From the NCBI RefSeq assembly GCF_056746865.1, contig NZ_CM163382.1: a stretch of DNA of 64,000 bases. One strand, given 5' to 3'. The notes beneath the pieces are model-generated. The model made no database searches. It was not told where the DNA came from and saw nothing but the letters and a program-made list of their open reading frames with translations. Below are positions 1,729 through 32,718 of this stretch, piece by piece. The first letter of the stretch is position 1, and each line of letters begins with the position of its first letter. Made by a program: the position numbers and the translations under genes.

Positions 1729-4015
<2,287 letters not shown>

Positions 4016-4682: not shown

Positions 4683-4711
4683 TAACTCCTGATAATAATT
4701 TTCTGACTTAC

Positions 4712-5308: not shown

Positions 5309-5362
5309 GATTAAACACTCCTGAAAGCAGAGGTGGCCGGGCAAACACCGGCCACTCACAGG

Positions 5363-6758: not shown

Positions 6759-6771
6759 TGCGGATCACTCC

Positions 6772-9301: not shown

Positions 9302-9560
9302 GTGAGATTTGGTGCTTAGCACAAATATAAATATTTGTGATCATTATCAAAATGTAAATGATAACGCATCTTTATTATCATTTGAGATTAAATATCACGC
9401 AGCGTTAATCTAAGGAAGGTGCGAATAAGCAGGTCATTTCTTCCCAAGTTGACTCGCTGATTAAAATTTCGCGGAGCTGGGCCGATTTTTTTCCCGCAAA
9501 CACATCGAATCAGCCTGTTTAGGCTATTTTTTCCACCATTTCTGGCGTTATTTCCGGTTT

Positions 9561-11847
<2,287 letters not shown>

Positions 11848-11870
11848 TCAGGAACTTGTTCGCACCTTCC

Positions 11871-12465: not shown

Positions 12466-12514
12466 CGTTGATACCGCTCTGGCGCACAGCGCCAGAGCGG
12501 TTTTCCATCCTGCC

Positions 12515-13210
12515 TCAACAATCCTCAATAATCAGATATACCGCCTTCACCGGACCATGCACCCCAACCACCTTGATAAGCTCAATATCCGCCGTCGAGC
12601 TGGGTCCACTGATGATATTAATGCACGATGGCATACGCTCACCGGCCTGTGCTTTCTGATGCAGTTTTTCTGCCAGCTGCGCCACGCGCGGCAGGATGGT
12701 GCTTTTACGCAGCACGAAAATAGAGGACTCCGGCAACAGGCTCAGGGAGCGCCCGCGCTCCGGTGCGGAAAACAGCACCACGCCGCCGGACTCGGTCAGG
12801 CCATATTCGGCATACACCACGCCGACTTTCGCCTGCTCGGCCTGGGTAATATTTTCGCTACCACGCGCCGGATCCCAGACCACGGCGTTGCATTCCTGCT
12901 GCAAGCGTTCGGTGATGCCCAGCTCCACCAGCCGGCTGTCGCCGCTCAGCACCACCGGCTGCTGACCCAATTCTTCGCACAGGCGCAGTGCCGCGTCTGC
13001 GGCCTGGTCCTCGCTGGTCAGTTCGCAGCGGGCCAGCATCACTTCGCTGGCAAACTGGATAAACGCAGAGCAGCGCTGCTCGGGGCTAAGCTCGGTCAGG
13101 CGCTCGTTGGCATAGTTGTTAACCGGTGCGGCATCCGCTTGCGGTTCGAAGCGCAGCGGGCGACCCAGCGCCTGGGCGATGGTGTTTAAAAACGCGGTAC
13201 GGTTATCCAT
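12515..13210 (-). CDS. lutC: Lactate utilization protein C (LutC/YkgG family)
   Basis: MDNRTAFLNTIAQALGRPLRFEPQ... matches remembered E. coli YkgG; SD AGGAG; start overlaps lutB stop. Confidence 0.8.
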   Translation of the reverse strand: MDNRTAFLNTIAQALGRPLRFEPQADAAPVNNYANERLTELSPEQRCSAFIQFASEVMLARCELTSEDQAADAALRLCEELGQQPVVLSGDSRLVELGITERLQQECNAVVWDPARGSENITQAEQAKVGVVYAEYGLTESGGVVLFSAPERGRSLSLLPESSIFVLRKSTILPRVAQLAEKLHQKAQAGERMPSCINIISGPSSTADIELIKVVGVHGPVKAVYLIIEDC

Positions 13211-14630
13211 TCTTTTTCTCCTGCGCCTGATGTTTCTTAAACCAGCTGCGGAAGCTCTCGCCGTCAGCATCAGGCAGATCGCGCGCCTCCATCCAGTCAC
13301 CAATCGCGCCAACCTTGAGCGGGGTTTTGCCGCCATTGATAAACCAGCTCGCCGCATGCGCGCCCGCCATCATCCCGACTTTCCACAGCCCCGGATGGCT
13401 ATTGGCATAGGCGAACATCTTGATCGCCCGTCGCTCGGCTTTCGGCGTAATGCCCTCCTCGGCCATCACCCGGCGATGACGCAGGATCAGTTTTGACAAC
13501 GGAATACGCACCGGGCAGACGCTGTCACAAGCCGTGCACAAAGAACAGGCGTACGGCAGGTCTTTAAAATCTTTATAGCCGCCGAGCAGCGGAGAAATCA
13601 CCGCGCCGATAGGGCCGGGATAGATAGAGCCATAGCCGTGCCCGCCGATGTGGCGGTACGCCGGACAGGTGTTCATACAGGCTCCGCAGCGGATGCAGCG
13701 CAGCACATCGCGAAACTCTGAGCCCAGCACCTGCGAGCGACCGTTATCGACAATCACCAGATGGAACTCTTCCGGTCCGTCAACGTTGTCCGCATCACGC
13801 GGGCCGGTCAGCCAGGTGTTGTAGCCCGTCAGACGTGCGCCCACGGCGCTGCGCGCCAGCATGGTAATCAGCACATCCACCTCGGCAAAGGTCGGCGCGA
13901 TACGCTCCATGCCCATCACCGCAATGTGCGTTTTCGGTAGCGTGGTGCACATGCGCGCGTTGCCTTCGTTGGTCACCAGACACACCGAGCCGGTTTCCGC
14001 CACGGCAAAGTTACAGCCAGTAATACCGATTTCGGCACTGAGGAAATCCTCGCGGATCTTCTGACGAATGAACAAGGTCATAGCTTCCGGGGTTTCCGGG
14101 CCGTCGTACCCCAGACGTTCGTTCAGCACGCGGCGGATCTGGTAGCGATCTTTATGAATCGCCGGAACCACGACGTGCGAAGGCGGATCCTGATCCAACT
14201 GCAGGATATATTCCCCGAGATCGGTTTCGATCACCTGGATTCCGGCATCCTGCAACACATGGTTGACGCCGATTTCTTCGGTCACCATCGACTTGGACTT
14301 CACCACCTTCTGCGCATTTTTACTCTGCGCGACCTGCAAAATGTAGCGAGTGGCATCTTCTTTGGTTTTGGCGAAATAGACGTGTCCGCCGTTTTCCGTC
14401 ACTTTCTCGGAGAGTTGGTACAGGTAAGCGTCGAGGTTGCTCAGAACGTGATCGCGGATCTGGCTGGCACGATCGCGCCATTCTTCCCAGTGGCCTAACT
14501 CATCGACCATTTTTTGCCGATTCGCGCCGATACGCTCCTGCGCATTAGCCACGGCTTTGCGCATAATCGGATCTTCTATCTGCTGACGAATACGCAGTTT
14601 AAATTCTACATCGCTGGTTTTTATCGACAT
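13203..14630 (-). CDS. lutB: Lactate utilization iron-sulfur protein B (LutB/YkgF family)
   Basis: MSIKTSDVEFKLRIRQQIEDPIMRKAVANAQERIGANRQ... and CxxCxxC motifs. Confidence 0.85.
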   Translation of the reverse strand: MSIKTSDVEFKLRIRQQIEDPIMRKAVANAQERIGANRQKMVDELGHWEEWRDRASQIRDHVLSNLDAYLYQLSEKVTENGGHVYFAKTKEDATRYILQVAQSKNAQKVVKSKSMVTEEIGVNHVLQDAGIQVIETDLGEYILQLDQDPPSHVVVPAIHKDRYQIRRVLNERLGYDGPETPEAMTLFIRQKIREDFLSAEIGITGCNFAVAETGSVCLVTNEGNARMCTTLPKTHIAVMGMERIAPTFAEVDVLITMLARSAVGARLTGYNTWLTGPRDADNVDGPEEFHLVIVDNGRSQVLGSEFRDVLRCIRCGACMNTCPAYRHIGGHGYGSIYPGPIGAVISPLLGGYKDFKDLPYACSLCTACDSVCPVRIPLSKLILRHRRVMAEEGITPKAERRAIKMFAYANSHPGLWKVGMMAGAHAASWFINGGKTPLKVGAIGDWMEARDLPDADGESFRSWFKKHQAQEKKNG

Positions 14631-14640
14631 CTCTTTCCCC

Positions 14641-15360
14641 TCAGCGGCTCATCAGCACTTCAGCAATATGCATCACTTTGACCGGCTGGCCTTCCCGTTG
14701 CAGTCGACCGCCAATGTTCAGCAGGCAGCTAACGTCTGCGCCAATCAAAAATTCCGGCTTTGCGTCCATCAGATGTAATACTTTCTCTTTCACCATCTCA
14801 CCGGATATCTCGGCCATCTTGACCGAGAACGTCCCGCCAAAGCCGCAACAGGTATCCTGATCGGCAAACGTCAACAGCTCCAGTCCGCGCACGTTTTTCA
14901 GCAGCGTAAGCGGCTCTTCCTTCACTCCCAGTTTGCGGGTCAGGCTACAGGAAGGATGATACACAGCGCGGCCCTGCAGGCTGGCACCAACGTCCACCAC
15001 ACCCAGTTTGTTGACGATAAAGGAGGTGAGATCCTGCATACGCGCGGAAACTTTCTCAGCACGCAGCGCCCATTCCGGTTCATCGGCCAGATACGTCGGG
15101 TAGCTTTTAACCGCGTAGGTGCAGGAGCCCGCCGGGGAGATAATCGGATCGTCGTTGTCTTCCAGCGCGGCGATCAGGTTTTTCATCCCGGGGATCGCCT
15201 CTTTGATGTAACCGCTGTTGATGGCTGGCTGACCGCAACACCCTTGCTTCTCGGGGAAATTAACGCGACAACCCAGTTTTTCCAGCAGCAATACGGAGTC
15301 TCGTGCCATCCGTGATTTCAGTGCGTCACCAATACAGGTGACAAAGAAATTTACATTCAC
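14641..15360 (-). CDS. lutA: Lactate utilization protein A (LutA/YkgE family, Cys-rich)
   Basis: MNVNFFVTCIGDALKSRMARDSV... with CCG motifs. Confidence 0.85.
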   Translation of the reverse strand: MNVNFFVTCIGDALKSRMARDSVLLLEKLGCRVNFPEKQGCCGQPAINSGYIKEAIPGMKNLIAALEDNDDPIISPAGSCTYAVKSYPTYLADEPEWALRAEKVSARMQDLTSFIVNKLGVVDVGASLQGRAVYHPSCSLTRKLGVKEEPLTLLKNVRGLELLTFADQDTCCGFGGTFSVKMAEISGEMVKEKVLHLMDAKPEFLIGADVSCLLNIGGRLQREGQPVKVMHIAEVLMSR

Positions 15361-15434
15361 AATAACTACTCCATTGCTTCATTTCTGTTTATTGCGCTTG
15401 ATATCGCGATATCAAACAAATGTTCATTCGTATT

Positions 15435-17132
15435 TCATGCCCAGTTTTTATGTTTGCTGGTTTTACCAATACCTGGATTCATAGTGTTGGTCGGATCATT
15501 TTCCTGATAAAAACGTGCCAAATTTTCCGGCGCTTTATACAGATGGCCGACATTGTGTTCCGCCGGATATTGCGCTCCGCGTTGGCGCAGTAATTCCAGC
15601 ATCTGTTCTTTTAACGCGTGGGCATCTACGCCTTTTTTAACGATATAATCCTGATGGAATACATGGCACATAAAATGGCCGTAATAGAGTTTATGCACCA
15701 ACTGACTGTCAATTTCCGCAGGTAAATACTCATACCATTCGGTATCATTGCGGCGTAATGCAATATCCAGCGCGAGAATATCCTCAACCTCGTCAGAATG
15801 AACGGCCTGATAACGAATGGCAGCACCCGCGGCGGCAAAACGATGCAGAAACGCCTTACTGCCCTCTTCCGCGGTACAGGTAAAGAACGCGCCCTCGGCC
15901 GATTTAAAATAGTCCGTTAACCATGCCTGGGCTTCGGCCACACCCTCGCCGGACATTTTCAACATCAGATGGTGTTCATAGTTATCGCGCCAGGTCTTCA
16001 TCCGCGCCGGGAGATGGCTCGGGAACAGATGGCTAAAAGCCTGCATCGCGCGGTCAGTAAAGTGCGGGCGAAAGATCTTCACCTTCTCAAGTATGGCCTC
16101 GGTACGCCCCTTCAGGTTGAAGAAGAACGGCATTTTGTCCGTGCCAAGTTTGTCGATCATCAGGAAGGTATCTTTGCTGTATTTCTCTGCAATATCATAG
16201 ATATCGCGGTGCATATACTCCCCAGCAACCGGCAGGTTTGTAAAATTCGCCAGGATGTGGCGGCGAATCTCAGTCAGGACATCAGTCTGATTGGTACCGA
16301 TATAAAAGACCTGCTGGTTCTTCTCGGCTTCAAAGGTATCCAGACGTACGGCAAACACCGCTAACTTGCCCGCGCAGCCAGAGGATTCAAACAGGCGATC
16401 CGGGTCAGCGTTGTAACGTGCTGGCGTGTCGGCATTGATGTCCCGCACGCGGCTAACATAGTCGTGATCGTGCGCGTGACGTCCGTCATGGTTGACGAGC
16501 GCGGCTTCAATCACATTGTTATCCAGCCGGGCAAGGATTTGCTCTGGCGTCTGACCTAGCTCAATGCCAAGGTGATTGACCAGCTGCAAGCGTCCCTGTT
16601 CATCAATGCGGGCAAACAGCGACATCTCGGTGTAAGCCGGGCCTCGCTGGACCAGAGAACCGCCCGAGTTATTACAGATACCGCCGATAACCGACGCGCC
16701 GATGCACGAAGAGCCGATCACCGAATGCGGCTCACGGCCAAACGGCTTCAGCGCCCTTTCCAGCGAGTACAGCGTGGTGCCCGGATAAGCCAGCACCTGC
16801 TTGCCCTCATCCAGCACATGCAGACTGTCCAGCCGCAGCGTGCTGATAATGACGATCTCGCGGTCGTAGTCATTACCATTTGGCGTCGAACCCTCGGCCA
16901 GGCCTGTGTTCGACGCCTGCATCAGGATTATTTTATCAGCCTCAACGCAGGCGCTGAGGACTTTCCAGAGTTCAAGCAAAGAGCCGGGGATAACCACCGC
17001 CAGAGCATCACCCTGACCCGAGCGGAATCCCTTACGGTAACGCGCAGTTTTTGACGGTTCGGTGAGGATATGAGCAGGGCCAACCAATTGGGTAAGAGTC
17101 GTCAAAAAGGTCTTATTATCAGTATGTTTCAT
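15435..17132 (-). CDS. dld: FAD-dependent D-lactate dehydrogenase (Dld paralog)
   Basis: High similarity along the whole length to remembered E. coli Dld (ARYRKGFRSGQGDALAVV...NPGIGKTSK). Confidence 0.8.
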   Translation of the reverse strand: MKHTDNKTFLTTLTQLVGPAHILTEPSKTARYRKGFRSGQGDALAVVIPGSLLELWKVLSACVEADKIILMQASNTGLAEGSTPNGNDYDREIVIISTLRLDSLHVLDEGKQVLAYPGTTLYSLERALKPFGREPHSVIGSSCIGASVIGGICNNSGGSLVQRGPAYTEMSLFARIDEQGRLQLVNHLGIELGQTPEQILARLDNNVIEAALVNHDGRHAHDHDYVSRVRDINADTPARYNADPDRLFESSGCAGKLAVFAVRLDTFEAEKNQQVFYIGTNQTDVLTEIRRHILANFTNLPVAGEYMHRDIYDIAEKYSKDTFLMIDKLGTDKMPFFFNLKGRTEAILEKVKIFRPHFTDRAMQAFSHLFPSHLPARMKTWRDNYEHHLMLKMSGEGVAEAQAWLTDYFKSAEGAFFTCTAEEGSKAFLHRFAAAGAAIRYQAVHSDEVEDILALDIALRRNDTEWYEYLPAEIDSQLVHKLYYGHFMCHVFHQDYIVKKGVDAHALKEQMLELLRQRGAQYPAEHNVGHLYKAPENLARFYQENDPTNTMNPGIGKTSKHKNWA

Positions 17133-17563
17133 GGAGGGCGGCTCTCCGCTCCTTATATCAGGGCCAGTGAAAATGGCTATAAGTTCATTTGTATGACAAA
17201 GCAGAATATTCCCTCAATCAATATCCACATGCAATACCCCATTTTATTTCTTTCGGTACCGCTCACATTTTTTAATGAAATTACCACCGCCATATAATTC
17301 ATACCTCGCCCTTTGAGGGGATGCCAAAACACTTATTTATTGCAAAGATCATCCCATACCTATTAATGATTAACTCTAATGGGTGTTGTAATATTTAGTG
17401 GTTATTCATATTTAATAAAAAAAATAACATTATTTATACAATTATTAACCTTTATAACTTTATTTCACTGAAGCGATTCAGTTAGCATTTTTTATTTTAT
17501 TATTCAGGTAGCTTCCTTCCCCATAAATATAGCTCAGTCTAAAAAAGTAAATCGGGAATTGTA

Positions 17564-19117
17564 ATGCACGAATATTTAATGTTTGCTCTGGCACTCTCTC
17601 CTTTGCTGCTGATGGTATTTTTAATACTGAAATTAAAAATGCCCATCCATTATTCCGTACTGATCTCTTTGGTATTCACCGCTGCACTATCGGCAATATT
17701 CTGGGAAATGCCCGTACAAAATTTGAAAGCCGCGATAGGCTATGGTGCACTGAAGGGACTATGGCCGATCGTAATTGTTATCCTCGGCGCTATCTTCAGT
17801 TATAACGTCATGCAGGCGACCAAAGCGCTGGATATTCTGCGCGATATTCTCGCCAGCATTAGCGAAGATAAGCGTATTCAGGTGCTGCTGATTTCATGGT
17901 GTTTTGGTGGATTTCTTGAAGCCGCTGCGGGCTATGGCACGGCGGTCGCTATTCCGATCGGTATTCTCATTGCGCTGGGATTCAACCCGTTGAAGGCGGC
18001 GATTGCTTCCCTCGTAGCAAATACCGTTCCGACCGCATTTGGCGCGGTTGGGATCCCGGTTTCTATTCTGGCAGAGCAGGTTAATCTGCCGGTTTATACC
18101 TTAGGCGGAACCATTATTTTGCAGCTCGCGCTGTTTAATATCCTGCTGCCGTTTGTGATTGTCTGCATTATTGGCGGTGGCCTGAAAGCCATTCGCGGCG
18201 TATTTCTGATCACGTTGATTTGCGGCATTTCCACGCTGATTCCGCAATATTTTGTCGCCATCCATCTTGGCGCGGAATTACCCGCTTTTGCCGGTAGCCT
18301 GGTCAGCCTGTTTGCCGTGGCGATGGTCAGTCGCCTGCGCAAAGGGAAAACCGATCCAGAGTGGCGCATTGAGGTCAGCCATACCCGCGAAACCACGCCG
18401 CGCTCGGCAAAAGTGTTGTTCCGCGTGGGCTCTATCTATCTGTTTATTTTTGTGTTTATCCTGCTGTGTTCGCCGCTGTTTCCGACAATAAAAGGCGCGG
18501 CATCCCAACTGGCTTCGGTGCTGCATTTCACGTTGGCTGACGGCAAAACGATGGCACTGAAAGTTGAATGGGTGACCACACCAGGGATGCTGATTATCTT
18601 TGCGACCATTATCGGCGGTTTTATTCAGGGAGCGTCCGCACGCGGGATGCTGGAAGTATTTATCAAAACGATTTTCCAGCTTAAAAACTCTATCGTGGCA
18701 ATTATGGCGATCGTCGCGCTGGCCACGGTGATGGATCTCAGCGGGATTATCTCCACACTGGCGCAGTCGATTGTCGATCTGACCGGCAGCTCGTACGTCT
18801 TCCTCGCCCCGGTGATTGGCGCGCTGGGCACGTTCGTTACCGGCAGCGATACCAACTCGAACATTCTGTTTGGCAAGCTGCAAACCATAGCTGCCAGCAA
18901 GTTACATATCGATCCCAACTGGCTGGCGGCGGCCAATACCTCTGGCGCTACGGGGGGCAAAATGATTTCGCCGCAAAGCATCGCCATCGCGGTTTCTGCC
19001 ACCAAAATGGACGGTCAGGCCAATCAGATCATGTCTGGCACCATGAAATACTGCTGTGCCTACATTGTGATCCTTGGCCTGAAAGTCGGTCTCTTTTATT
19101 ACTGGTTTATGGCGTAA
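17564..19117 (+). CDS. Lactate permease (LctP/LldP/GlcA family)
   Basis: 517-aa polytopic protein; conserved GSDTNSNILFGKLQ and GKMISPQSIAIA segments of LctP-family transporters. Confidence 0.8.
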   Translation: MHEYLMFALALSPLLLMVFLILKLKMPIHYSVLISLVFTAALSAIFWEMPVQNLKAAIGYGALKGLWPIVIVILGAIFSYNVMQATKALDILRDILASISEDKRIQVLLISWCFGGFLEAAAGYGTAVAIPIGILIALGFNPLKAAIASLVANTVPTAFGAVGIPVSILAEQVNLPVYTLGGTIILQLALFNILLPFVIVCIIGGGLKAIRGVFLITLICGISTLIPQYFVAIHLGAELPAFAGSLVSLFAVAMVSRLRKGKTDPEWRIEVSHTRETTPRSAKVLFRVGSIYLFIFVFILLCSPLFPTIKGAASQLASVLHFTLADGKTMALKVEWVTTPGMLIIFATIIGGFIQGASARGMLEVFIKTIFQLKNSIVAIMAIVALATVMDLSGIISTLAQSIVDLTGSSYVFLAPVIGALGTFVTGSDTNSNILFGKLQTIAASKLHIDPNWLAAANTSGATGGKMISPQSIAIAVSATKMDGQANQIMSGTMKYCCAYIVILGLKVGLFYYWFMA

Positions 19118-19364
19118 GCCATTGTCAACCCCGTCAAATTCGCGGCAATCGTATTTGACGACACAGTGACCAAAAAGGTTTATACCACCCCAGAAACGGA
19201 ACAAGGCGACAGGCTTTACGATTTGTCGGCGCTGACTAAAATAGCGCCGATGTTTCAAATCGAGGATTGTTGTTATGTTGTTCTGGAAAAAGATGGTGAA
19301 GAAGTTCGACGCCTTTTCCGCGTTGATTCCACCACGCTACTTCCGCGTGTAATACCTGGCACTT

Positions 19365-19470
19365 ATTCCTGATGGCGCTTCGCTTATCAGGCCTACATTT
19401 CACACTCATTTGTAGGCCTGCGTTTCACGCTCATTTATAGGCCGGATAAGGCGCGAGCCGCATCCGGCAG
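19365..19470. repeat. REP/BIME-type repetitive extragenic palindromes
   Basis: GCCGGATAAGGCG...CGCATCCGGCAG and CTGATGGCGCTTCGCTTATCAGGCCTACA units. Confidence 0.7.
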
Positions 19471-19538
19471 CAACAGCAGCGTAAAATGCTCACCCCTTTC
19501 TCTTACGCAGACCGCATGCTCTTAACACCACCACCCAC

Positions 19539-20053
<515 letters not shown>

Positions 20054-20075
20054 CTATTTCCCTGCCTCTCCTCCC

Positions 20076-20109
20076 CGAACCGGACGTGCACCTTTCAGCG
20101 CATCCGGCT
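20076..20109 (-). ncRNA. Group II intron domain V (catalytic hairpin)
   Basis: 34-nt GAGCCGG...GAAA...CCGGTTC hairpin matching the domain V consensus, just 3' of the reverse transcriptase stop. Confidence 0.75.
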
Positions 20110-20115
20110 CTCCAT

Positions 20116-21639
20116 TTAAATGCTGGCGAACGCCATTGCCACTTCTGTAAAGCGCGATGTATACGTGTTTCTGGTCTCCGTCCTCAGATAGGGATTACCT
20201 TCGGGTAGCCGCCAGCGGAACAGCTTCTTGCCTTGCCCCACCAACCGGTACAGTATTTCGCCGCTGAGCTTGCCGTGATTGGTTTTACCAAATAAAACCC
20301 ACGTTTTGCTCTGACCCGGTTTCGGTGATTTACACCACCACCTCATCAGGGAAGCGATACCTGTACGGTATTTGCGGGCCAGCCAGTGAGCCAGCTTCCA
20401 GAACACGACACGGTCGATATAACTGAAGACTTTGGCCTTAAAATCAACGAACTGATAGAACATGGCCCAGCCTTTCAGTTTTCGGTTGAGTTGTTCAGCC
20501 ATATCGACTTTGCTTTCACTGTAGTTGCCTGATAACAGTGCTGTCAGCGATGCGGCGAAGTTTCTGGCTTTCTCCTGCGGGATCGTTGAGACCACTCGCA
20601 TCTCGCCATAACGACTGCGTTTGCGAATGATCCTGTGCCCCAGAAAGATAAAGCCGTCATTAACATGGGTGATTTTAGTCTTATCCATGTTCAGCCTGAG
20701 TTTCAGACTGCCTTCGAGCACACCCCGACACTCCTCCCTGATGGCTTCCGCCTGTGCTTTGGTGCCTTTGACGATGAGGACAAAATCATCGGCATAGCGG
20801 CAGTACGCCACCGCGGGTTTCCACTGCCAGTTTTCTCTGACCGCCGTACTTCGGCCCCGTTGGATACTGTTATTCCAGTACCACCGATCTTTTCTGGCTT
20901 TCCCGCTCAGGTAGCGCTCATGCAGGTATTGATCGAACTCATTCAGCATGATGTTCGATAATAGCGGCGATATAACACCGCCCTGTGGCACACCTTCACT
21001 GGCCGCCCGAAAGAGACCGACATCGATATGTCCCGCCTTGATGGTTTTCCACAGCAGAGTCATGAAACGTGCGTCACTGATCCTGCGGCGTACAGCCTTC
21101 ATCAGCAGTCGATGATGTACGGTGTCGAAGTAACTGGACAGGTCGCCTTCAATCACCCAGCGTCCCCGGGTTTCACCACAGTCTGTGAGCTGTAATTTCA
21201 CCGTGCGGATCGCGTGGTGGACACTGCTCTCAGGCCGGAAGCCATATGAGAGCGTATGAAAATCACTCTCCCATATCGGCTCCATCGCCATCAGCATGGC
21301 CCGCTGAACAATACGATCCCGCAACGCGGGGATACCCAGTGGTCGCAGTTTGCCGTTGCTTTTAGGGATGTAAACCCGTCTGGCGGGCAAGGGCTGGTAG
21401 TGGCCTGAGAGTAATTCATCCCTGAGGATTTGCAGCTCAACAGCCAGTCTGGCCTGTAGCATTGTTTTGTTCACGCCATCAACGCCGGGGGTATGGGCCC
21501 CCTTTGATGAAAGCGTGATCCGCGCCGCTTCAGCCAGCCATTCTGGTTGTGTTATCAGACGCAGCAGCCGTTGAATCCGTAGGGACGGATCGGTGGCTGC
21601 CCATGTGGCAAGCTTGCGTTGCATTTCGCTGATTATCAA
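20116..21639 (-). CDS. Group II intron-encoded protein (reverse transcriptase with maturase domain); TTG start
   Basis: RT motifs including the YADD box (AVAYCRYADDFVLIV) and GKLRPLGIPALRDRIVQ; located in intron domain IV. Confidence 0.85.
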   Translation of the reverse strand: MIISEMQRKLATWAATDPSLRIQRLLRLITQPEWLAEAARITLSSKGAHTPGVDGVNKTMLQARLAVELQILRDELLSGHYQPLPARRVYIPKSNGKLRPLGIPALRDRIVQRAMLMAMEPIWESDFHTLSYGFRPESSVHHAIRTVKLQLTDCGETRGRWVIEGDLSSYFDTVHHRLLMKAVRRRISDARFMTLLWKTIKAGHIDVGLFRAASEGVPQGGVISPLLSNIMLNEFDQYLHERYLSGKARKDRWYWNNSIQRGRSTAVRENWQWKPAVAYCRYADDFVLIVKGTKAQAEAIREECRGVLEGSLKLRLNMDKTKITHVNDGFIFLGHRIIRKRSRYGEMRVVSTIPQEKARNFAASLTALLSGNYSESKVDMAEQLNRKLKGWAMFYQFVDFKAKVFSYIDRVVFWKLAHWLARKYRTGIASLMRWWCKSPKPGQSKTWVLFGKTNHGKLSGEILYRLVGQGKKLFRWRLPEGNPYLRTETRNTYTSRFTEVAMAFASI

Positions 21640-22295
21640 AGGTCTTCACCTCGTTAGGTCAGTTAATTCACGTCGCAAACACATTCAAACTGCTTCCCTT
21701 CGCCATGTAATGGGCTTTCCCCATCGCGGACTACTACGGAAGCTCCGCCAGCCAGCGCGTCATCGGAGCCATGCCCCCTTAACATCCGTCGCTGACCTTC
21801 CCCGGTTTACCGGCCTGGACTCAGGCATACTGAGGAGGCTGCCCGTCGCACTCTTTATCCTTGCTTGCCGCAAGTTGGCAGAAGTCAGCAATGCAAGCGT
21901 GATAGACGCTGCTGCCCCGGTGTTTCGCATACATGTCAAAACACCTTCGACCGGCAGTGCTTACGTATCACTGCCAGTTCCTCCTGCACGGCCTGTCAGA
22001 TCACGTAGGCCGTGGTGACGTTTTCAACCCACAGAGGCGGATTAACGGGTTCATGTTCTTCAGCCTTTCAGTACTTAACCTTGAGGATCATCTCGGCTTA
22101 GTGATCTCGCCTCAATCCCCGTTGTCAGCGGGTTACATCACCCTGCGGGCATGCCGCAGGTCACTGCCGCTCAGGTTCTCCACCGTCACACCCGGTGGGA
22201 TTGTTGGGTTTCTCATCGTGAGTTACCGGTTCAATATTCCAGACAGACTCGCGGTTCATTTAAGCATCCATGCCCGCCCTGAACTCCGGGCACAC

Positions 22296-22713
22296 CGTAA
22301 GTAAAATCAGCCACCCACAACTGGTCAGGACGTTCTGCCACAAACTGACGGTTTACGCGGTCGCCTGCGGCAACGGCTTTCCGGCTGACGGTAGTGCGGA
22401 CCTTTTTACCCCGGAGAACACCGGCAAGTCCCATAACCGCCATGAGGCGCGCCACTGTACATCTGGCTACCCTGATTCCTTCCCGTAACAACTGACGCCA
22501 GACTTTACGCACACCGTATACCTGATGATTCCCATCGTATACGCGCAGTATCTCTTTCTTCAGCCAGTCATCGCGCTGCGCACGGGCACTGCGTTTATCA
22601 GGATGATGTCGCTGTTGCTGACAGTGGTAATACGTTGACGGGGCAATATGTAGTTCACTGCATACCGGTCCGACCCCGTACAGCTTACGCAGCTTATCCA
22701 GCAGTGGCATCAC
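22296..22713 (-). pseudogene. IS629-like transposase OrfB, N-terminal ~139 codons, interrupted by the intron after ...QLWVADFTY
   Basis: [33 protein letters not shown]...; the track ORF continues 22 codons into intron sequence. Confidence 0.75.
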
Positions 22714-23036
22714 TTTTTCCAGAGGCGGTCGAACTCCACCTTCGCAAAATAAGCGGAAGCCTGGCGAAGGATATCGTTACTGCGGCGCAGTTCACGATTT
22801 TCACGTTCCAGCTCTTTCAGACGCTGACGTTCAGCGGTGGTGAGCCCGCCATCACCGCCTCCGGTATCCCGCTCATGCTGGCGCACCCAGACACGCAGAG
22901 TCTCCGGTGTACAGCCAATCTTTGGGGCAATGGAACAAATTGCCGCCCACTGTGAGTCATATTCGCCCTGACTTTCCAGAACCATACGAATCGCCCTCTG
23001 ACGGACTTCGGGGGAAAAACGAGTATTTTTAGTCAT
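22710..23036 (-). CDS. IS629-like OrfA (HTH)
   Basis: [50 protein letters not shown]... matches remembered IS629/IS1203-type OrfA. Confidence 0.8.
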
Positions 23037-23090
23037 TCTGTTTACCTCTTTCTCAGGGAGTTTAGTCTCCAGGATTCCCGGGGCGGCTCA

Positions 23091-23883
23091 GGTCACCGAT
23101 GCCGTGATGGAGCAGGTTGTAGAATGGCAAAACAGACCACTGGATGCTGTTTACCCCATTGTTTATCTTGACTGTATCGTCCTGAAAGTTCGGCAGGACA
23201 GTCGCGTCATCAACAAATCGGTGTTCCTGGCACTGGGCATCAATATCGAAGGTCAGAAGGAACTGCTGGGTATGTGGCTGGCCGAAAATGAAGGGGCGAA
23301 GTTCTGGCTCAATGTGCTGACTGAACTGAAAAACCGCGGTCTGAACGATATCCTCATCGCCTGTGTGGATGGCCTGAAAGGCTTCCCGGATGCCATCAAC
23401 ACAGTATATCCGAAGGCCCGCATCCAGTTATGCATCGTGCATATGGTGCGCAACAGCCTGCGCTTCGTGTCATGGAAGGACTACAAGGCCGTCACTCGCG
23501 ACCTGAAAGCGATTTATCAAGCTCCCACGGAAGAGGCAGGTCAGCAGGCACTGGAAGCGTTCGCTGCGGCCTGGGACAGTCGCTATCCTCAGATAAGCCG
23601 AAGCTGGCAGGCTAACTGGCCGAATCTTGCCACGTTCTTCGCTTATCCAACGGACATCCGCAAAGTGATCTATACGACGAATGCCATCGAGTCGCTAAAC
23701 AGCGTGATCCGCCATGCGATCAAAAAGCGTAAAGTGTTCCCGACAGACGACTCGGTGAAAAAAGTGGTGTGGCTGGCAATCCAGTCTGCGTCCCAGAAAT
23801 GGACGATGCCGTTGAAGGACTGGCGAATGGCAATGAGCCGCTTTATTATCGAGTTCGGTGACCGCCTGGACGGTCACTTCTGA
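23091..23883 (+). pseudogene. IS256-family (mutator-type) transposase, C-terminal ~264 codons; 5' part removed at the IS629-like insertion
   Basis: Coding ...VTDAVMEQVVEWQNRPLDAVYPIVYLDCIVLKVRQDSRV... begins immediately at the IS629-like end with no start codon or N-terminal domain. Confidence 0.7.
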
Positions 23884-24119
23884 GAAAAGGCATTTACACA
23901 GAATCCTAAACAGGCTCCCGTCACGATACCCGGTATCAATCAATGAAGTCCATTTAATTGATGACGTCGAAGTTATGGCATGTGTGACGATGCTGAGAAA
24001 GCGCCCTTTTTCAGGTGTTTTTTTAATCTTTTTGGGGTTTAAATTCCTATTGATGAACAACGCTTTCATTTACGGGACAATGACCGGCAACGCTCCCGGT
24101 ACACCGGGAGCGTTAGTGT

Positions 24120-25667
<1,548 letters not shown>

Positions 25668-25715
25668 TCACCCGCAACAAAAATGACGTGCACAACGGTT
25701 ACGGGCAGGAAACGG

Positions 25716-26642
25716 TCAGGGGTGTTTCAGTAAATCCTGGCGACGGGGTAACGCTGTCATGGCACCTTTTGCTGTCGTGGCAAGCGCACCACAGCGCTGG
25801 GCCTGTTCGATGACGGATGCGAGTGCCTGCTCACCGGAGGGCATCCCCTCTGCCGCCAGCGCCGCCAGCAGACCTGCCACGAAGGCGTCACCGGCACCGG
25901 TCGTGTCCACACTCACCACCGGTGTTGCCGGGAAGTACAGGTTTTTTCCCTGCCAGCGAGCCATCACGCCATCCTTTCCTTGGGTTACCAGCAGCAGTGC
26001 CAGGGGATAATGTGATGCCAGAACATCGGTTCCCTTCCGGACATCCTGTTCACCGCTGATAAAGAACAGTTCCTCTTCCGATACCTTTGCCACATCCGCC
26101 AGCATGAGCGCCCGGTGCAGACACTCACGCAGTTGCGATGTGCTCTGCCACAGGTCAGTCCGGATGTTGGGGTCAAAGCTGACCCTGCCGCCAGCCTGCC
26201 GGATGTTCTCCATGGCCTGAAACGTGGCGCTGCGGCAGGGCTCTGCACTCAGGGCATTGGAGCAGGTATGCAGCCATTCACCGGCACGAAAGGGCGGTAA
26301 ATCATCAGGGGTAAGGAAAAGGTCTGCCGAAGGGCGCACCATAAATGTGAAGGTTCGTTCACCACCCGGCACCAGCGACACCACCACTGTGGAAGTCCGG
26401 TACAGAGGGTCGGTATGCATATACGCCGTGTCCACACCCTCATCAGCCAGGGTTTTGCGCATAAAACGCCCGAAAGGGTCATCCCCCACACACCCGACAA
26501 ACCCGCTCAGGCCCCCCAGTCGGGCCACGCCCACGGCAACATTGGCAGGCGCACCACCAGGGCACTGCAACAGCGTGCCCGGCTTCTCCGGTAATAAATC
26601 CACCACGGCATCACCGAGACCCCATACTTTTACTGTACTCAT
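25716..26642 (-). CDS. PfkB-family fructokinase (ScrK/CscK-like)
   Basis: GDAVVDLLP...CPGGAPANVAVGVARLGG...DTTGAGDAFVAGLLA ribokinase-family motifs. Confidence 0.75.
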   Translation of the reverse strand: MSTVKVWGLGDAVVDLLPEKPGTLLQCPGGAPANVAVGVARLGGLSGFVGCVGDDPFGRFMRKTLADEGVDTAYMHTDPLYRTSTVVVSLVPGGERTFTFMVRPSADLFLTPDDLPPFRAGEWLHTCSNALSAEPCRSATFQAMENIRQAGGRVSFDPNIRTDLWQSTSQLRECLHRALMLADVAKVSEEELFFISGEQDVRKGTDVLASHYPLALLLVTQGKDGVMARWQGKNLYFPATPVVSVDTTGAGDAFVAGLLAALAAEGMPSGEQALASVIEQAQRCGALATTAKGAMTALPRRQDLLKHP

Positions 26643-26671
26643 TCATACTCCATGATTTTCATCAGTCATAT

Positions 26672-26983
26672 TCAGCGGATGACAGACAGCTCAAACATCG
26701 CCATATCCGTGGTTCCGGCTGGAATTGGATACCAACCCGCATTCCGGAGCAGGGCAGCGAGGGCAGACACATCGCCGGTCAGGGGATGCAGCAACCTCCC
26801 CTGATAATCAAATGCCGCCTCAAGACGTGAGCGGGAAAGATAAAAGCTGCCGGCATCCCCGTTCGGAACCACGACATTACGCCCCTCCCATTTCCGGTCG
26901 CTCAGTATCCGCCAGCACCAGCCCTGCTCCCTGATGGTTTCCAGGGCGAATGTCAGGCGGAACAGGTCAGTCTGTACCGACAC
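26672..26983 (-). CDS. Hypothetical protein (103 aa) within the sugar cluster
   Basis: ORF co-oriented and tightly spaced with neighbours; no family recognised. Confidence 0.4.
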   Translation of the reverse strand: MSVQTDLFRLTFALETIREQGWCWRILSDRKWEGRNVVVPNGDAGSFYLSRSRLEAAFDYQGRLLHPLTGDVSALAALLRNAGWYPIPAGTTDMAMFELSVIR

Positions 26984-27253
26984 ATCACCAGAGCAGGCCT
27001 GCCACAGATACTCCAGCCTGCTGCGGATATCTTTCGCCCCGCTTTCACTCTGCAGGGCTCTGATATGTGCGGGGAAAACGGTGCTGTTTCAGTGCTGTGC
27101 TCCGCCAGCGGTTTAGAAACAGGTTTTCCTGGATTTTTGACGCAATCCGGCCATCCCGGCGGGCCAGATGCAGGGCTACCAGCCCGCACCAGGCCAGATG
27201 TGCGGCTTTCCCTGATACCAGCTGCCCGCTGGCGATATTGTCACTCATGGCGC

Positions 27254-27769
27254 TTACTGGCTGCTGATATCAAAAACCGGTGTTTCTCCGGCGATGACCG
27301 GGCCGGAGAACAGGGTTATCTCCTGGACACGGTCAGAGTCCGCCACAATCACCGGTGTCAGCGTGGACTGTGCTTTCTGCTGAAGTAACGCAAGGTCAAA
27401 CCCGATGACGGGGTCACCGGTGCTGATCAGCTGGCCTTCCTGGGCAATACGCCGGAAACCCTCTCCCCTGAGGTCAACTGTGTTAATACCGAAGTGCACG
27501 AACAGTTCAGTGCCACTGTCGGTGCGGATGGAAAACGCGTGGTTTGTCTCCAGTATTTTACCGATAGTGCCGCTGACAGGAGCCATCAAGGTATCGCCGC
27601 CGGAAGGACGGATAGCAATACCATCCCCCACTATTTTCCCGGCAAACACAGCATCCGGAACCGTGTCCAGAGGGACAATTTCACCGGACAGCGGTGCCAT
27701 CACGCGGGTGACTTCCGCCGGTTTCTCATTTTCACTTATCAGTTGTTTAATCCTGCCCAGTAATCCCAT
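27254..27769 (-). CDS. PTS EIIA component, glucose family (Crr-like)
   Basis: MGLLGRIKQ...VFAGKIVGDGIAIRP...GKILETNHAFSI...ELFVHFGINTV resembles E. coli Crr. Confidence 0.8.
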   Translation of the reverse strand: MGLLGRIKQLISENEKPAEVTRVMAPLSGEIVPLDTVPDAVFAGKIVGDGIAIRPSGGDTLMAPVSGTIGKILETNHAFSIRTDSGTELFVHFGINTVDLRGEGFRRIAQEGQLISTGDPVIGFDLALLQQKAQSTLTPVIVADSDRVQEITLFSGPVIAGETPVFDISSQ

Positions 27770-27832
27770 TGTGCTTTCCTTCATTACGGGTGAACCGAAA
27801 GTACTGCCGTCACCGACGGCAGTGGAATTATT

Positions 27833-29263
27833 TCAGGCCAGCGTCCACAGTGAGCCGTCCGTCAGCACAGCCTCGCCGTGAGCTGCATATAGCGACAACC
27901 GGCGGGTTCCGGGCTGCGGGTAAATACGGCTGGACAGGGTGGCATCGCCATCGTTAACGAACACTTCCACCGATGAACGGTCCAGGAAAACCCGTAGCGT
28001 CAGATATTCTGCGCCAGGCAGCGCGATACTGCGGTAACCGTCCAGCCCCTCATCCGGGTAGTGACGCCAAAGCACCAGCCGTCCTGCCTGGTTATCCACA
28101 TACAGCCGGAGCCCGTCTCCCAGGTGGATGCCGTAATGCTCTGCCTGACTGTCGAGGGTATGCCACGTCAGCACCAGTTCCACGGCCTGTGCGTCCTCAG
28201 CCAGCAACTGCGTGCCACTGAGCCTTACAGGGTGTAACGGCTGGCACGTCCCGCGAAGGGATTCGGCTTCGCGAACCGGACGCTGACACAGACGACCATG
28301 GCGTTCAAAAAGTTCCCTCGGCAGGGTCAGACATCCGGCCCAGGCCTCACGCTTTGTAGGCATCGGGGAGTCCCACATATTCATCCAGGCCATGATGATG
28401 CGCCGTCCGTCCTCCGCGACCAGGGACTGCGGGGCATAAAAATCATGACCGTGATCCAGTTCTTCAAATGCCCCGCTCAGGGCAAAGGCGGCCCCCGGCT
28501 GCCAGTGACCCGGTAAAACTCCGCTCTGAAAGCGGTTGCGGAACCGGTATCCGCCGGGCGTCATCCCCTGCGGGGAGAACATCAGCCAGTGATGGTCGCC
28601 ACAGCGGAAAAAGTCCGGACATTCCCACATATAGCTTTCTCCGGCTGCCGACTGCGCTAGAACCCGTTCCTGGCGCCAGTCCCGCAGGGATGTGCCGCGA
28701 TACAGCAGCACCTGACCGGTGTCAGAGGTATCCCGCGCGCCGATAACCATCCACCAGTATCCCCCTTCCCGCCAGACCTTCGGGTCACGGAAATGCATGA
28801 TGCCTTCCGGTGGCGTCAGCACGCAGCCCTGTTTCTCAAAGTGAATGCCGTCACGGCTGGTTGCCAGACACTGGACTTCGCGGATGATGCTGTCATCCCC
28901 CCGATCCTCCAGACAGAGATGACCGGTGTAGATAAGCGACAGCACGCCGTTGTCGTCCACTGCGCTGCCGGAAAAACAGCCATCCCGGTCATATTCATCA
29001 CCGGGTGCCAGCGCAACCGGCTCATGCTGCCAGTGCAGCATGTCCGGACTGGTGGCATGTCCCCAGTGCATCGGCCCCTGATGTTCACTTGCCGGATGGT
29101 GCTGAAAGAATGCGTGATAGCGACCGCTGAAATAAATAAGCCCGTTCGGATCATTCATCCATCCGGCAGGTGGAGCCAGATGAAAAACCGGGTACCAGGT
29201 ATCACCACGACGGGCGCGGAGTGTATCAAGTGCAACCTGTGCAGAGGCAAGACGCTGTTTCAT
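27833..29263 (-). CDS. rafD: GH32 sucrose/raffinose hydrolase (invertase; RafD/ScrB/CscA family)
   Basis: WMNDPNGL, FRDPKVW and ECPD GH32 catalytic motifs. Confidence 0.8.
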   Translation of the reverse strand: MKQRLASAQVALDTLRARRGDTWYPVFHLAPPAGWMNDPNGLIYFSGRYHAFFQHHPASEHQGPMHWGHATSPDMLHWQHEPVALAPGDEYDRDGCFSGSAVDDNGVLSLIYTGHLCLEDRGDDSIIREVQCLATSRDGIHFEKQGCVLTPPEGIMHFRDPKVWREGGYWWMVIGARDTSDTGQVLLYRGTSLRDWRQERVLAQSAAGESYMWECPDFFRCGDHHWLMFSPQGMTPGGYRFRNRFQSGVLPGHWQPGAAFALSGAFEELDHGHDFYAPQSLVAEDGRRIIMAWMNMWDSPMPTKREAWAGCLTLPRELFERHGRLCQRPVREAESLRGTCQPLHPVRLSGTQLLAEDAQAVELVLTWHTLDSQAEHYGIHLGDGLRLYVDNQAGRLVLWRHYPDEGLDGYRSIALPGAEYLTLRVFLDRSSVEVFVNDGDATLSSRIYPQPGTRRLSLYAAHGEAVLTDGSLWTLA

Positions 29264-30552
29264 AAGCGAACCTCCGTCTGTGCTGTAGCGGTTTCTGCTG
29301 ACGGGGCAGCCGTTTTACGGGTACTGCTCAGGGTGAAAGCCGATAACACGGTGACCGCAAGGACAATACCGCCCAGAACCAGATAGGTGTTCTGGAACCC
29401 CATGCGGTCATACAGGTGACCTGCAAAGGTTGAGAGGAATATCGCCGCCAGTTGTTTGGAGAACTGAAAGCCAATCAGATAAATGGTGGCCGACAGCCGG
29501 GTATCAAACACGCCGGTGATATACTTGAACGCACCAACCAGCAGGAATGGGACTTCAAGGGCATGCAGCATTTTCAGGATCACCACTTCAGTAGCCGTGG
29601 TGGCAAAGGCCGACCCTGTGATGCGGATGGTCATAATCAGACCCGCGACAAGCAGTGTGTTTTTGGCACCAATGCGGTTGATTATCCAGGGGGAGCAGAA
29701 CATGATGATGGCATTGCAAATCTCGCCAGCCGTGGTGGCAAAACCAAATGCCCGGATCCCCGCCTGCGGCGTGTCAAAAAATGCACGGAAGAACGTGGCA
29801 AACTGCTGGTCAAACACGTCATAGACGCAGGCCACCCCAATCATGTAAAGCACGAACATCCACATCTGACGCATACGAAACAGACTGAACACCATTCCGG
29901 CGGAAATCACGGGCGAGTTGGCACCCAGCGCATTCATGACCATCGCTGTCTGACTGGTTCCGGGACGCGCCAGCGCCACCAGAAGGACCAGCAGCAATGC
30001 GCAGCCGGACCCCATCCAGAATACCAGGGACGGATCCACGTTGAAAAGCAGCCCTGCCGTGGTGGCACACAGCGCCCAGCCCAGACAGCCGAACATCCGG
30101 GCCTTACCGTATTCAAATCCGCTGCTGCGGCTGACACGTTCAATATAGGCTTCGATGGCACCGGCTCCCGCAGAAAAAACGAAGCCGATAAAAATCCCGC
30201 CGCTCAGTGCTCCGGCCCAGATGTTGAACCGCAGCAGCGGCGCAAAAACGTACAGAAAGAACGGTGCAAACAGGACCAGCAGCAGGCTGATGATCCACAT
30301 CAGGTGTTTTTTCAGGCCAAGACGGTCTGAGATGACCCCCAGCAGCGGCTGGAAGCTGATGGCAAACAGGGAGAGGCATGAAAAAACAATCCCGGTATCC
30401 GTTTTACTCAGCCCCACAATGTCTGACAGCCAGACGGGCAGAAACGGGAAACAGGTTGCCATGATGAAAAAGTAGAGAAAAAAGAACAGACCAAATATCC
30501 AGAAATCGGGGTTTTTATGAGTACTGACAGTATTCATTATTGTTATCCTCAC
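29260..30552 (-). CDS. rafB: LacY-family oligosaccharide:H+ symporter (raffinose permease RafB-like); start may be the ATG at 30537
   Basis: 12-TM MFS protein with strong similarity to LacY (NPDFWIFGLFFFLYFFI...). Confidence 0.8.
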   Translation of the reverse strand: MRITIMNTVSTHKNPDFWIFGLFFFLYFFIMATCFPFLPVWLSDIVGLSKTDTGIVFSCLSLFAISFQPLLGVISDRLGLKKHLMWIISLLLVLFAPFFLYVFAPLLRFNIWAGALSGGIFIGFVFSAGAGAIEAYIERVSRSSGFEYGKARMFGCLGWALCATTAGLLFNVDPSLVFWMGSGCALLLVLLVALARPGTSQTAMVMNALGANSPVISAGMVFSLFRMRQMWMFVLYMIGVACVYDVFDQQFATFFRAFFDTPQAGIRAFGFATTAGEICNAIIMFCSPWIINRIGAKNTLLVAGLIMTIRITGSAFATTATEVVILKMLHALEVPFLLVGAFKYITGVFDTRLSATIYLIGFQFSKQLAAIFLSTFAGHLYDRMGFQNTYLVLGGIVLAVTVLSAFTLSSTRKTAAPSAETATAQTEVRL

Positions 30553-30591
30553 GGGACTGAGTGCAGGGAGCCGTGACCGGCTCCGGTCCTT

Positions 30592-32718
30592 TTATGCCAA
30601 ACGTTCAAGGGCAATCAGCATGGCGCTTTCCGGATCCAGTACGGGAAGCTGAATACCGGCCTGCGCCAGCCATTCCCCACTGATGTCGGAGGTCTGGTTC
30701 ATCCAGCCGGGCAGCCTGCGCATGGTATGCCCGCCTTCACCGACCAGCTGAATATCCGGATGGTCAACAACACGAAGCCGGTAACGGGCCTGTGGTGCCA
30801 GCCCCGGAAAACGTAGAGCACCCGGCAGGGTGTGATCCGGCATGGCAAGCTGGCTCACCAGGAAGAGCGCCTGCGACTGATCCGGGCTGACCACCCCCTG
30901 CACCTGTGTCGCCGCATCCGGCATATCCACCCGCCATAGGGTGCCCGTGTGGATAAGCTGCCGCCATTCTTTGTAGAGCGAGGCATAGCGGCGGTAACCG
31001 GCGGATTCCTCTTCTCCGGCCGTTACCGGATCCAGCTCCAGTCCCATATGACCGAACAGGGCCGTCAGACCGCGAAAGGCAATGCTGTGCTGCCGGAAGG
31101 TGGCATGGCAGCGATGATGACCGATGTGTGCCCCCATAACCTCCGGCGGGAAAAAGTAACTCATGCCACGCTGTATGGTGCAGCGCTCCAGGGCGTCATT
31201 GTTGTCAGAAGCCCAGAAGCGGTGCGTGCGGGTCAGAACCTCAAAGTCGATACGTCCACCGCCGGAAGCGCAGGACTCAAACTCAACACGGGGAAAACGT
31301 TCGCGCAGGAGATCCAGCAGCCGGTAAAACTGACGGGTCTGCGCGTCCGCCGCCGCCCGACCTTCATGCCCGGCCTGGACCAGCTCGCGGTTCATGTCCC
31401 ATTTCACATAGTCAACTGGGTGTTCGCCCAGCAGCCATAAACAGCGTTCATAAATGTAAGCAAAGGCCTCAGGAATGTTCAGGTTGAGAACATACTGATG
31501 TCTCCCGGTTGGTTGTGTGTACCCCGGCATTGACAGTACCCAGTCAGGATGGCGGCGAAAGAGGTCAGAGTCCGGGTTAATCATTTCCGGTTCCACCCAG
31601 ATACCGAACTCCATGCCGAGTGATTTCACATGGTTAATCACCGGCATCAGTCCGTCCGGATACTTCTGTTCATCCAGATACCAGTCGCCCAGAGCCGCAT
31701 GGTCATCATTGCGTCCCTTAAACCAGCCGTCGTCGATAATGAAACGTTCAACGCCAAGCGCTGCCGCACGTCCGGCCATCTGCATGATGTAGTTCGGGTC
31801 GTGGTCAAAATAAATACCTTCCCAGGTATTGAGGTGCACCGGACGGGGTTTCTGCTCAGGAAAACGGATGATTTCATCGCGCAGAAAACGGTGGTACTGC
31901 TGACTCATACCATTGAGCCCCTCCGGGGAATAGCTGGCGTACAGCCACGGCGTGTACACGGTCTCATCCTTCTTCAGGGCTTTTTCTCCGGGCATCCACA
32001 GTGCTTCCGCCTGGAGGTAACGCCGTCCGTCAGTTTTGACCTCACATTTCATGCGATGGTTGCCACTCCAGCCCAGATGTACGGCCCACACCTCGCCCTG
32101 CTGTTCTGAGAAACCGGGGGCACCGGCAATCAGTGCCGGAAAATGCTCATGGGACGTGCGGCCCCGGCGGTTCTCCAGCACAAAACCGTCATGTGTGAGA
32201 CGGACCCTGTGCGGCTGAAACTCACGAGTCCAGCGTCCGTGGAAGGCCATGACTTCCTCTGCCCTTTCAGCCACAGGGAGCGTGATGGCGAAGCGGTTCA
32301 CCTGCCAGTCCCCTTCACGGAGGTTCGTCAGGGCATGACGCATCTTCAGCACACCGGACGATGTCAGCACCAGTTCACTGACCATGCGCAGACCCGCCAC
32401 TGCATCCTCACTGGTCAGGGTGAGTGATTCTCCGGCCTGTACCACGCTGATGGTACGGAACACAGGGGACGCATCCAGCCCGTTGCGGTGTCCCTCCAGC
32501 CCCGGCGAGCCAAAAAGTCCCGCGCCGTTTTCGGCCATCAGCGTCAGTGGGGTGTCGGTATCCAGACGACCATTCGCAACCGGCCTTTCCAGGCTGATAC
32601 AGTCATCCGGTGAAAAGTGTTTCAGGGTGGATCCCCACCAGACAATCTCTGCATACGGGTGGGTTTTAATAATCAGGTCTGAGTGGGGACTGGTCAGCCT
32701 GCGGTACATCGGTTCCAT
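30592..32718 (-). CDS. rafA: GH36 alpha-galactosidase (RafA-like)
   Basis: 708-aa protein; KWDMNR and CASGGGR segments of family 36 alpha-galactosidases. Confidence 0.8.
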   Translation of the reverse strand: MEPMYRRLTSPHSDLIIKTHPYAEIVWWGSTLKHFSPDDCISLERPVANGRLDTDTPLTLMAENGAGLFGSPGLEGHRNGLDASPVFRTISVVQAGESLTLTSEDAVAGLRMVSELVLTSSGVLKMRHALTNLREGDWQVNRFAITLPVAERAEEVMAFHGRWTREFQPHRVRLTHDGFVLENRRGRTSHEHFPALIAGAPGFSEQQGEVWAVHLGWSGNHRMKCEVKTDGRRYLQAEALWMPGEKALKKDETVYTPWLYASYSPEGLNGMSQQYHRFLRDEIIRFPEQKPRPVHLNTWEGIYFDHDPNYIMQMAGRAAALGVERFIIDDGWFKGRNDDHAALGDWYLDEQKYPDGLMPVINHVKSLGMEFGIWVEPEMINPDSDLFRRHPDWVLSMPGYTQPTGRHQYVLNLNIPEAFAYIYERCLWLLGEHPVDYVKWDMNRELVQAGHEGRAAADAQTRQFYRLLDLLRERFPRVEFESCASGGGRIDFEVLTRTHRFWASDNNDALERCTIQRGMSYFFPPEVMGAHIGHHRCHATFRQHSIAFRGLTALFGHMGLELDPVTAGEEESAGYRRYASLYKEWRQLIHTGTLWRVDMPDAATQVQGVVSPDQSQALFLVSQLAMPDHTLPGALRFPGLAPQARYRLRVVDHPDIQLVGEGGHTMRRLPGWMNQTSDISGEWLAQAGIQLPVLDPESAMLIALERLA

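Follow-up and report, generated by a model that had tools for sequence, protein, structure and literature searches.

The lactate module and the raffinose-type sugar module of an E. coli genomic island meet at a junction that very probably originated when two copies of the group II intron E.c.I4, residing in two different insertion sequences of the IS3 family, underwent homologous recombination. The analyzed window, a stretch of 64,000 nucleotides (NCBI RefSeq assembly GCF_056746865.1, contig NZ_CM163382.1), carries a full-length intron between exons of two different elements, and each of the two intron-bearing parental configurations exists in other sequenced genomes beside one of the two modules. 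The junction accounts for how the lactate and sugar modules became neighbours, and the parental arrangements of the relatives support the claim of the first-pass annotation that a recombination junction separates them.

The left side of the region is formed by the lactate module (lutABC-dld-lactate permease) with the L-lactate permease gene at 17564-19117. The spacer after the permease contains two 25-nt direct repeats with palindromes (19389-19438), which precede a REP (repetitive extragenic palindrome) unit on the minus strand (19436-19470; its reverse complement reads CTGCCGGATGCGGCTCGCGCCTTATCCGGCCTATA), a sequence that matches the E. coli REP consensus. The REP stretch beside the permease is also kept on Raoultella/Klebsiella plasmids. 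Between the permease and the REP unit we also noted a 68-codon open reading frame (19166-19372, plus strand), which Klebsiella/Raoultella plasmids have kept alongside the permease and which the records examined leave unannotated. The next three features lie on the minus strand: the 3' 487 bp of ISEc52, an IS911-like element of the IS3 family (19539-20025), the full-length E.c.I4 of 2270 nt (20026-22295) with its intact ltrA gene for a reverse transcriptase (RT)/maturase of 502 aa (20116-21624), and the 5' 795 bp of an IS629/IS1203-like element, likewise of the IS3 family (22296-23090). The ISEc52 part represents the 3' exon and the IS629-like part the 5' exon of the intron. On the plus strand follow the 3' 827 bp of IS1414 (IS256 family; 23091-23917, nt 489-1315 of the element) with the open reading frame of astA (EAST1 heat-stable enterotoxin, 23390-23506), which is out of frame in the IS1414 remnant. 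After a gap of 202 bp the gene of a LamB-family carbohydrate porin (24120-25616, minus strand) opens the sugar module. Four mobile elements had been described within 4.4 kb and all of them are found at their places; chance is ruled out for the matches that identify them.

In the identical stretch of strain 2452, PGAP annotates a partial IS3, ltrA, another partial IS3 and an 'IS256-like element IS1414 family transposase, missing N-terminus', and the sugar module of this strain consists of porin, kinase, GH32 hydrolase, MFS transporter and alpha-galactosidase. Our analysis corrects the logic behind this kind of annotation, as the IS3 pseudogenes flanking ltrA come from different ISs.

The intron starts with 5' GUGUG (22295-22291, minus strand) and ends with …CUCUAC at position 20026. 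Rfam identified domain V/VI (Intron_gpII, RF00029) at 20026-20112 with 64.9 bits; apart from this and the ALIL pseudoknot of the IS629-like part there was no match at the gathering threshold, in particular none to a domain I-IV family. The intron-encoded RT matched the Pfam domains RVT_1 (E=5e-34) and GIIM and no others, and differs in 2 aa from WP_032145081. Over its length the intron is 99.69% identical to E.c.I4-2b of E24377A, with identical splice boundaries (coordinates of this copy taken from the supplementary tables of PMC3522654). The assignment to E.c.I4, a class A intron without endonuclease (En) domain (PMC3552965) that is reported to home into set positions in the transposase genes of IS629, IS911, ISEc16 and ISEc31 (PMC3522654), is based on the 5' GUGYG, the domains V and VI, an RT with maturase (X) and without En, the sequence identity and the position at the homing site. 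Otherwise identical copies in strain 2452 and in the Salmonella contig CP101360 carry a W29* mutation of the RT (21538 C>T). Judged from these sequences, the open reading frame of the window is the ancestral version and possibly still mobile.

A comparison of the two exon boundaries revealed the mismatch. Exon 1 ends with …GATTTTACTTACG (…GTG GCT GAT TTT ACT TAC G), which is the IS629-type WVADFTY, and exon 2 starts with TCTGGACGGG (TC TGG ACG GGT AAG), which is of the IS911/ISEc52 type. Both boundaries correspond to the homing positions of E.c.I4 in IS629-like and IS911/ISEc52 elements, as defined by copies with cognate exons: on plasmid pPA45B the intron is followed by the IS629-type TCAGCACATGG…, and the copy of E24377A follows the ISEc52/IS911-type …GATGTGACCTATA. 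ISEc52 carrying E.c.I4 together with its own 5' exon is present in 1,144 genomes. When exon 1 and exon 2 of the window are joined, they are in frame and yield an open hybrid orfB of 298 codons. The intron has natural exon sequence on both sides and an intact RT. It has probably kept its ability to splice, with the in-frame hybrid orfB as the expected product. The hybrid IS as a whole lacks a target duplication, its left flank being CAC and its right flank GGT.

The IS629-like part ends at 23090 with its terminal inverted repeat (minus strand TGAGCCGCCCCGGGAATCC), which reads TGAGCCGCCCCGGG and starts with TG. The part contains orfA (22710-23036; Pfam HTH_Tnp_1, E=1.8e-12, with an additional match to HTH_21), an ALIL frameshift pseudoknot (22639-22755, Rfam 111.7 bits) and the 139 codons with which orfB begins. 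Plasmid pLH10-b-1-A carries an intact element of 1309 bp to which the part is 99.4% identical; the identity to a copy annotated by PGAP as 'IS1203 family' in the E. coli E8 record is 95.6%. The window therefore holds 795 of 1309 bp, and the 3' 514 bp are absent; this 3' part is present in pLH10-b-1-A, pF1022-2 and STEC346. With regard to the IS629/IS1203 group, the HTH of orfA, the -1 frameshift signal and the inverted repeat are in place, and a complete orfB with its own rve domain and the right inverted repeat are lacking. The element had been read as being interrupted by the intron; the intron does occupy the homing site, but the element is more than interrupted, because its 3' part is gone.

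On the other side of the intron, the right inverted repeat of ISEc52 (TGAAGTGGTCAAC... from 19539, reading TGAAGTGGTCAACAAAAACTGGCCACC) is of the IS911 type, and the part encodes the C-terminal 159 codons of orfB with the rve core (Pfam, E=5e-22), which places it in the ISEc52/IS911 group. It is 97.1% identical to nt 1-487 (in the orientation of the window) of an intact ISEc52 of 1249 bp in a Raoultella/Klebsiella record (L005) and 99.7% identical to the copy of E. coli E8, and the 5' 762 bp are absent from the window. A perfect target-site duplication around the intact ISEc52 in the Raoultella/Klebsiella record was looked for and not found. That an IS911-like remnant abuts the intron is correct as an observation. 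The adjacency is, though, no accident, as the remnant is the 3' exon of the intron, beginning at the homing-site position of ISEc52.

Evidence for recombination comes from relatives that bracket the event on both sides. On the lactate side, Raoultella/Klebsiella IncFIB plasmids (L005) carry the intact, intron-free ISEc52 in the corresponding position, next to the same lactate permease and REP, and their homology to the window (17480-20025) stops at the splice site. The chromosome of E. coli E8 (L015) represents the same side with the intron: lutABC-dld-permease, the ISEc52 3' part, E.c.I4 and an IS911-family 5' part are arranged in this order, the homology covers 12100-22323 and the sugar module is absent. 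The IS911-family 5' part of E8 shows only 91-93% identity to ISEc52, and the strain has extra IS1203 and IS30 insertions, with a later IS1203 in the intron. On the sugar side, plasmid pLH10-b-1-A (L007) carries the intact, intron-free IS629-like element with the same IS1414 junction beside the sugar module. The intron-bearing form of this side is found in the chromosome of STEC346 (L017; homology 20024-32399) and on plasmid pF1022-2 (L016; homology 20024-30442, broken by IS100 at 23435-23445). Both have the two IS629 exons, abutting IS1414 at nt 489, and to the left of 20024 they continue with the IS629 3' part, the lactate module being absent. The homologies of the left and the right parent to the window have the intron as their sole overlap, and the crossover would therefore have taken place inside E.c.I4. 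The extant 'parents' are relatives and not the actual ancestors. Within the intron, the SNPs at 21211 and 21596 are of the left-parent type and those at 21953 and 21976 of the right-parent type. They weakly suggest that the crossover fell into the interval from 21596 to 21953, with only four informative sites and two of them possibly private to E8.

The following order of events would be in line with these arrangements. The IS629-like element would have inserted into an astA-bearing IS1414 at nt 488/489, as indicated by the junction itself, with IS1414 located 202 bp from the porin gene of the raffinose-type sugar module. Subsequently, either an adjacent deletion mediated by IS629 or an exchange between IS629 copies would have separated the 5' part of IS1414 from the right IS629 end. 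E.c.I4 would then have entered the homing site in the orfB of IS629 by retrohoming, a state seen in the relatives STEC346 and pF1022-2. Separately, the ISEc52 beside the lactate module would have gained E.c.I4 at the homologous site, as in E8. Finally, a crossover in the identical 2.27-kb intron, deduced from the homology pattern, would have fused the two sides. Its product would be the lactate module with the ISEc52 3' part, joined through the intron to the IS629 5' part, the IS1414 remnant and the sugar module; the 5' part of ISEc52 and the 3' part of IS629 would have been lost. The reciprocal product of the event was not identified, and the 64-kb window contains elsewhere no IS1414 5' part, no second intron copy and no reciprocal junction. 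Tandems of introns and IS elements in Enterobacteriales have been proposed to be especially prone to recombination (Leclercq and Cordaux, PMC3522654).

The first-pass annotation had explained the region by layered insertions. Spelled out, this reading has IS629 in IS1414, the intron in IS629 and an unrelated IS911 remnant that became adjacent by an unspecified deletion. The insertion events themselves are real, as the IS629/IS1414 junction and the intron at the IS629 homing site demonstrate, but simple nesting is an unlikely account of the whole. The start of the IS911-like piece coincides exactly with the 3' splice site and with the homologous homing position and keeps the frame, as a random deletion endpoint would not; in addition, both intron-bearing parental configurations exist. 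The comparison with related islands found the junction at its place, but the relatives point to an exon swap inside the intron and not to pure layering.

Even less probable is a natural hybrid IS, with an IS629 left and an ISEc52 right part recombined in the conserved DDE region, which was invaded by E.c.I4 afterwards. The homing site does lie within a segment that is conserved among IS3-family transposases, and about 28 nt of exon 1 are partly similar between the IS629-like element and ISEc52. Nevertheless, the homology between the two ISs falls far short of that offered by the 2.27-kb intron, and the hybrid lacks a target-site duplication. Moreover, a contiguous intron-less IS629/ISEc52 hybrid junction was not found in 5,426 complete genomes; the 6 places that covered at least 80% of the test junction all had 560-680 bp of intervening DNA.

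Group II introns without an En domain use replication intermediates, and the chimera could in principle be a product of retromobility itself, by a template switch or by repair from a second intron allele during cDNA integration at a replication fork. This would fit E.c.I4 as an En-less class A intron (PMC3552965), in agreement with the Pfam matches to RVT_1 and GIIM only. However, no specific signature favours this route, two copies of the intron or of the homing site would still be needed, and it would end in recombinational repair with an outcome that equals homologous recombination in sequence data; we regard it as slightly less probable again than an earlier hybrid IS. An assembly misjoin across the intron can practically be dismissed: E.c.I4 and the ISs are multi-copy repeats, but the same 4.7-kb structure is present with 99.9-100% identity in 194 independently assembled complete E. 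coli genomes and also on some plasmids.

IS1414 is truncated at the left end of the IS629-like element. The junction reads …GGGGCGGCTCA/GGTCACC (23090/23091), and the break lies exactly where the left inverted repeat of the IS629-like element has its outer end. The full IS1414 on plasmid pTB-nb2 has 1315 bp and a transposase gene of 1209 nt (402 aa). Positions 23090-23917 of the window align to nt 488-1315 of this copy with 99.76% identity (828 nt), and in plasmid-borne full IS1414 copies the match breaks off at query position 827/828. The first 488 nt, including the left inverted repeat and 139 of the 402 codons, are missing. The remaining reading frame (23092-23883) has 263 codons, and Pfam Transposase_mut (PF00872) matches 23092-23880 with profile positions 140-377 of 379 only (E=3.6e-82). 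These alignments bear out the earlier claim that the IS256-family reading frame is cut at the IS629-like repeat without its N-terminal third, and show it to be shorter than a complete transposase gene of the family. The copy shares with IS1414 the mutator-type DDE transposase, the near-identity, the embedded astA and the right inverted repeat, which ends at 23917; full length and a second inverted repeat are lacking. What is left is the remnant of an IS1414 and no functional element; having lost 139 codons together with the left inverted repeat, it is incapable of autonomous transposition.

The astA open reading frame inside this remnant is intact. Its 38 codons translate to MPSTQYIRRPASSYASCIWCATACASCHGRTTRPSLAT, the K33R variant that is also present in an intact plasmid copy of IS1414; the comparison covered the AMRFinder-annotated astA in record L004 and on plasmid pLH10-b-1-A. 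The association of astA with IS1414 has been described, and IS1414 copies that have decayed but kept astA are reportedly common (PMC12585946). An intact astA open reading frame within a non-mobile IS1414 remnant bears on astA typing.

According to the sequence comparison, the truncation of IS1414 predates the crossover in the intron, because it is already present beside the intron-free IS629 of pLH10-b-1-A. We considered that the intron-intron crossover also deleted the IS1414 5' part and rejected this, as pLH10-b-1-A, pF1022-2 and STEC346 have the same truncated junction. Insertion of IS629 alone, which had been held responsible for the truncation, does not explain it either, since even without the intron the 5' part is missing beyond IS629 in pLH10-b-1-A. 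At the right end of IS629 the three relatives show the flanks GAG, GTT and AAC instead of the expected GGT; these flanks are mutually unrelated and none of them is IS1414. The lack of the IS1414 5' part beyond IS629 in every relative examined calls for an additional event that preceded the crossover and rearranged the right IS629 end, most likely an IS629 insertion followed by an adjacent deletion or by an exchange between two IS629 copies. An arrangement of IS1414 5' half, IS629 and IS1414 3' half at the same junction was not found among the relatives searched.

Independent insertions of IS629 into IS1414 were observed close to this site. Plasmid pE500002_123 has one at about nt 494, roughly 6 bp away, with a TAC duplication and both IS1414 halves, and pEGY2 has another at nt 531, about 43 bp away. 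Together with the window (23090/23091; the other positions are L010 6153-6157 and 7466-7468 and L011 6193/6194), three independent IS629-like insertions in the same orientation fall within 45 bp of IS1414 (nt 488, ~494 and 531), and this clustering suggests a local target preference.

A second repeat structure was observed at the left end of the window. A direct repeat of 2,464 bp (99.6%; 1576-4039 and 9408-11871), consisting of an IS5-like and an IS3-family open reading frame, flanks an operon of the DMSO-reductase family (open reading frames 4185-9207) with molybdopterin subunit, 4Fe-4S subunit, DmsC anchor, chaperone and ferredoxin. In strain 2452 the repeat is present in a single copy and the operon is missing. 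The arrangement resembles a composite transposon or an insertion flanked by ISs.

The exchange of exons around E.c.I4 is not restricted to this junction. The opposite chimera, with an IS629 3' exon, E.c.I4 and an IS911/ISEc52-type 5' exon, is contiguous in many chromosomes at another locus, with a truncated P4-type integrase on one side and shf-capU-virK-lpxM on the other (e.g., E. coli M217, L019, 8001-11534), whereas E24377A (L014, 905-4395) has cognate IS911-type exons at the shf-capU-virK locus; exon swapping of E.c.I4 is therefore recurrent. Furthermore, Salmonella CP101360 (L008, 2555-6167) and the 353-kb E. coli 'plasmid' NZ_MG591698 (L018) carry the chimera of the window together with the sugar module and without the lactate module. 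Their left flank is hsdM of a type I restriction-modification system, their ISEc52 allele is 95.9% identical to that of the window, and their introns carry the window-specific SNPs. This combination indicates a putative second exchange near the 3' end of the intron, at the intron/ISEc52 boundary. As E.c.I4 homes into several different IS3-family elements, we tentatively consider the possibility that it has a general role in E. coli as a 'portable crossover site'. Recombination between its copies would then repeatedly fuse unrelated island or plasmid modules, such as lactate utilisation with the raf-type sugar operon and astA in this case, and produce hybrid ISs with a chimeric transposase encoded by the spliced mRNA. 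Should exon-swapped copies turn out to be frequent and to lie at many island junctions, recombination through the intron would contribute measurably to the way islands are assembled.

Each of the elements, and the process too, has been described before, our understanding of these families is unchanged and the region is an ordinary mosaic in an E. coli genomic island. It provides, however, a clean natural case of group II intron copies as substrates of ectopic recombination, with parents and product sequenced. Compared with other E.c.I4 copies in transposase genes of IS3-family elements, the intron of the window has the same splice-site positions and an intact RT/maturase, but its exons come from two different ISs and not from one. 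Its 5' part resembles the IS629/IS1203 group in the IS629-type inverted repeat, orfA and ALIL pseudoknot, and its 3' part resembles the ISEc52/IS911 group in the IS911-type rve C-terminus and inverted repeat; unlike the members of both groups, the two elements are incomplete and together form one hybrid with non-cognate ends. The IS1414 copy retains Transposase_mut, its right inverted repeat and an intact embedded astA and differs from full IS1414 by the loss of nt 1-488. The inferred event itself is similar to ectopic recombination between repeated mobile elements, in which two long identical repeats serve as portable homology and flanks are swapped. Here, both parental configurations and the recombinant are visible in sequenced genomes, and the recombination would have joined two metabolic modules.
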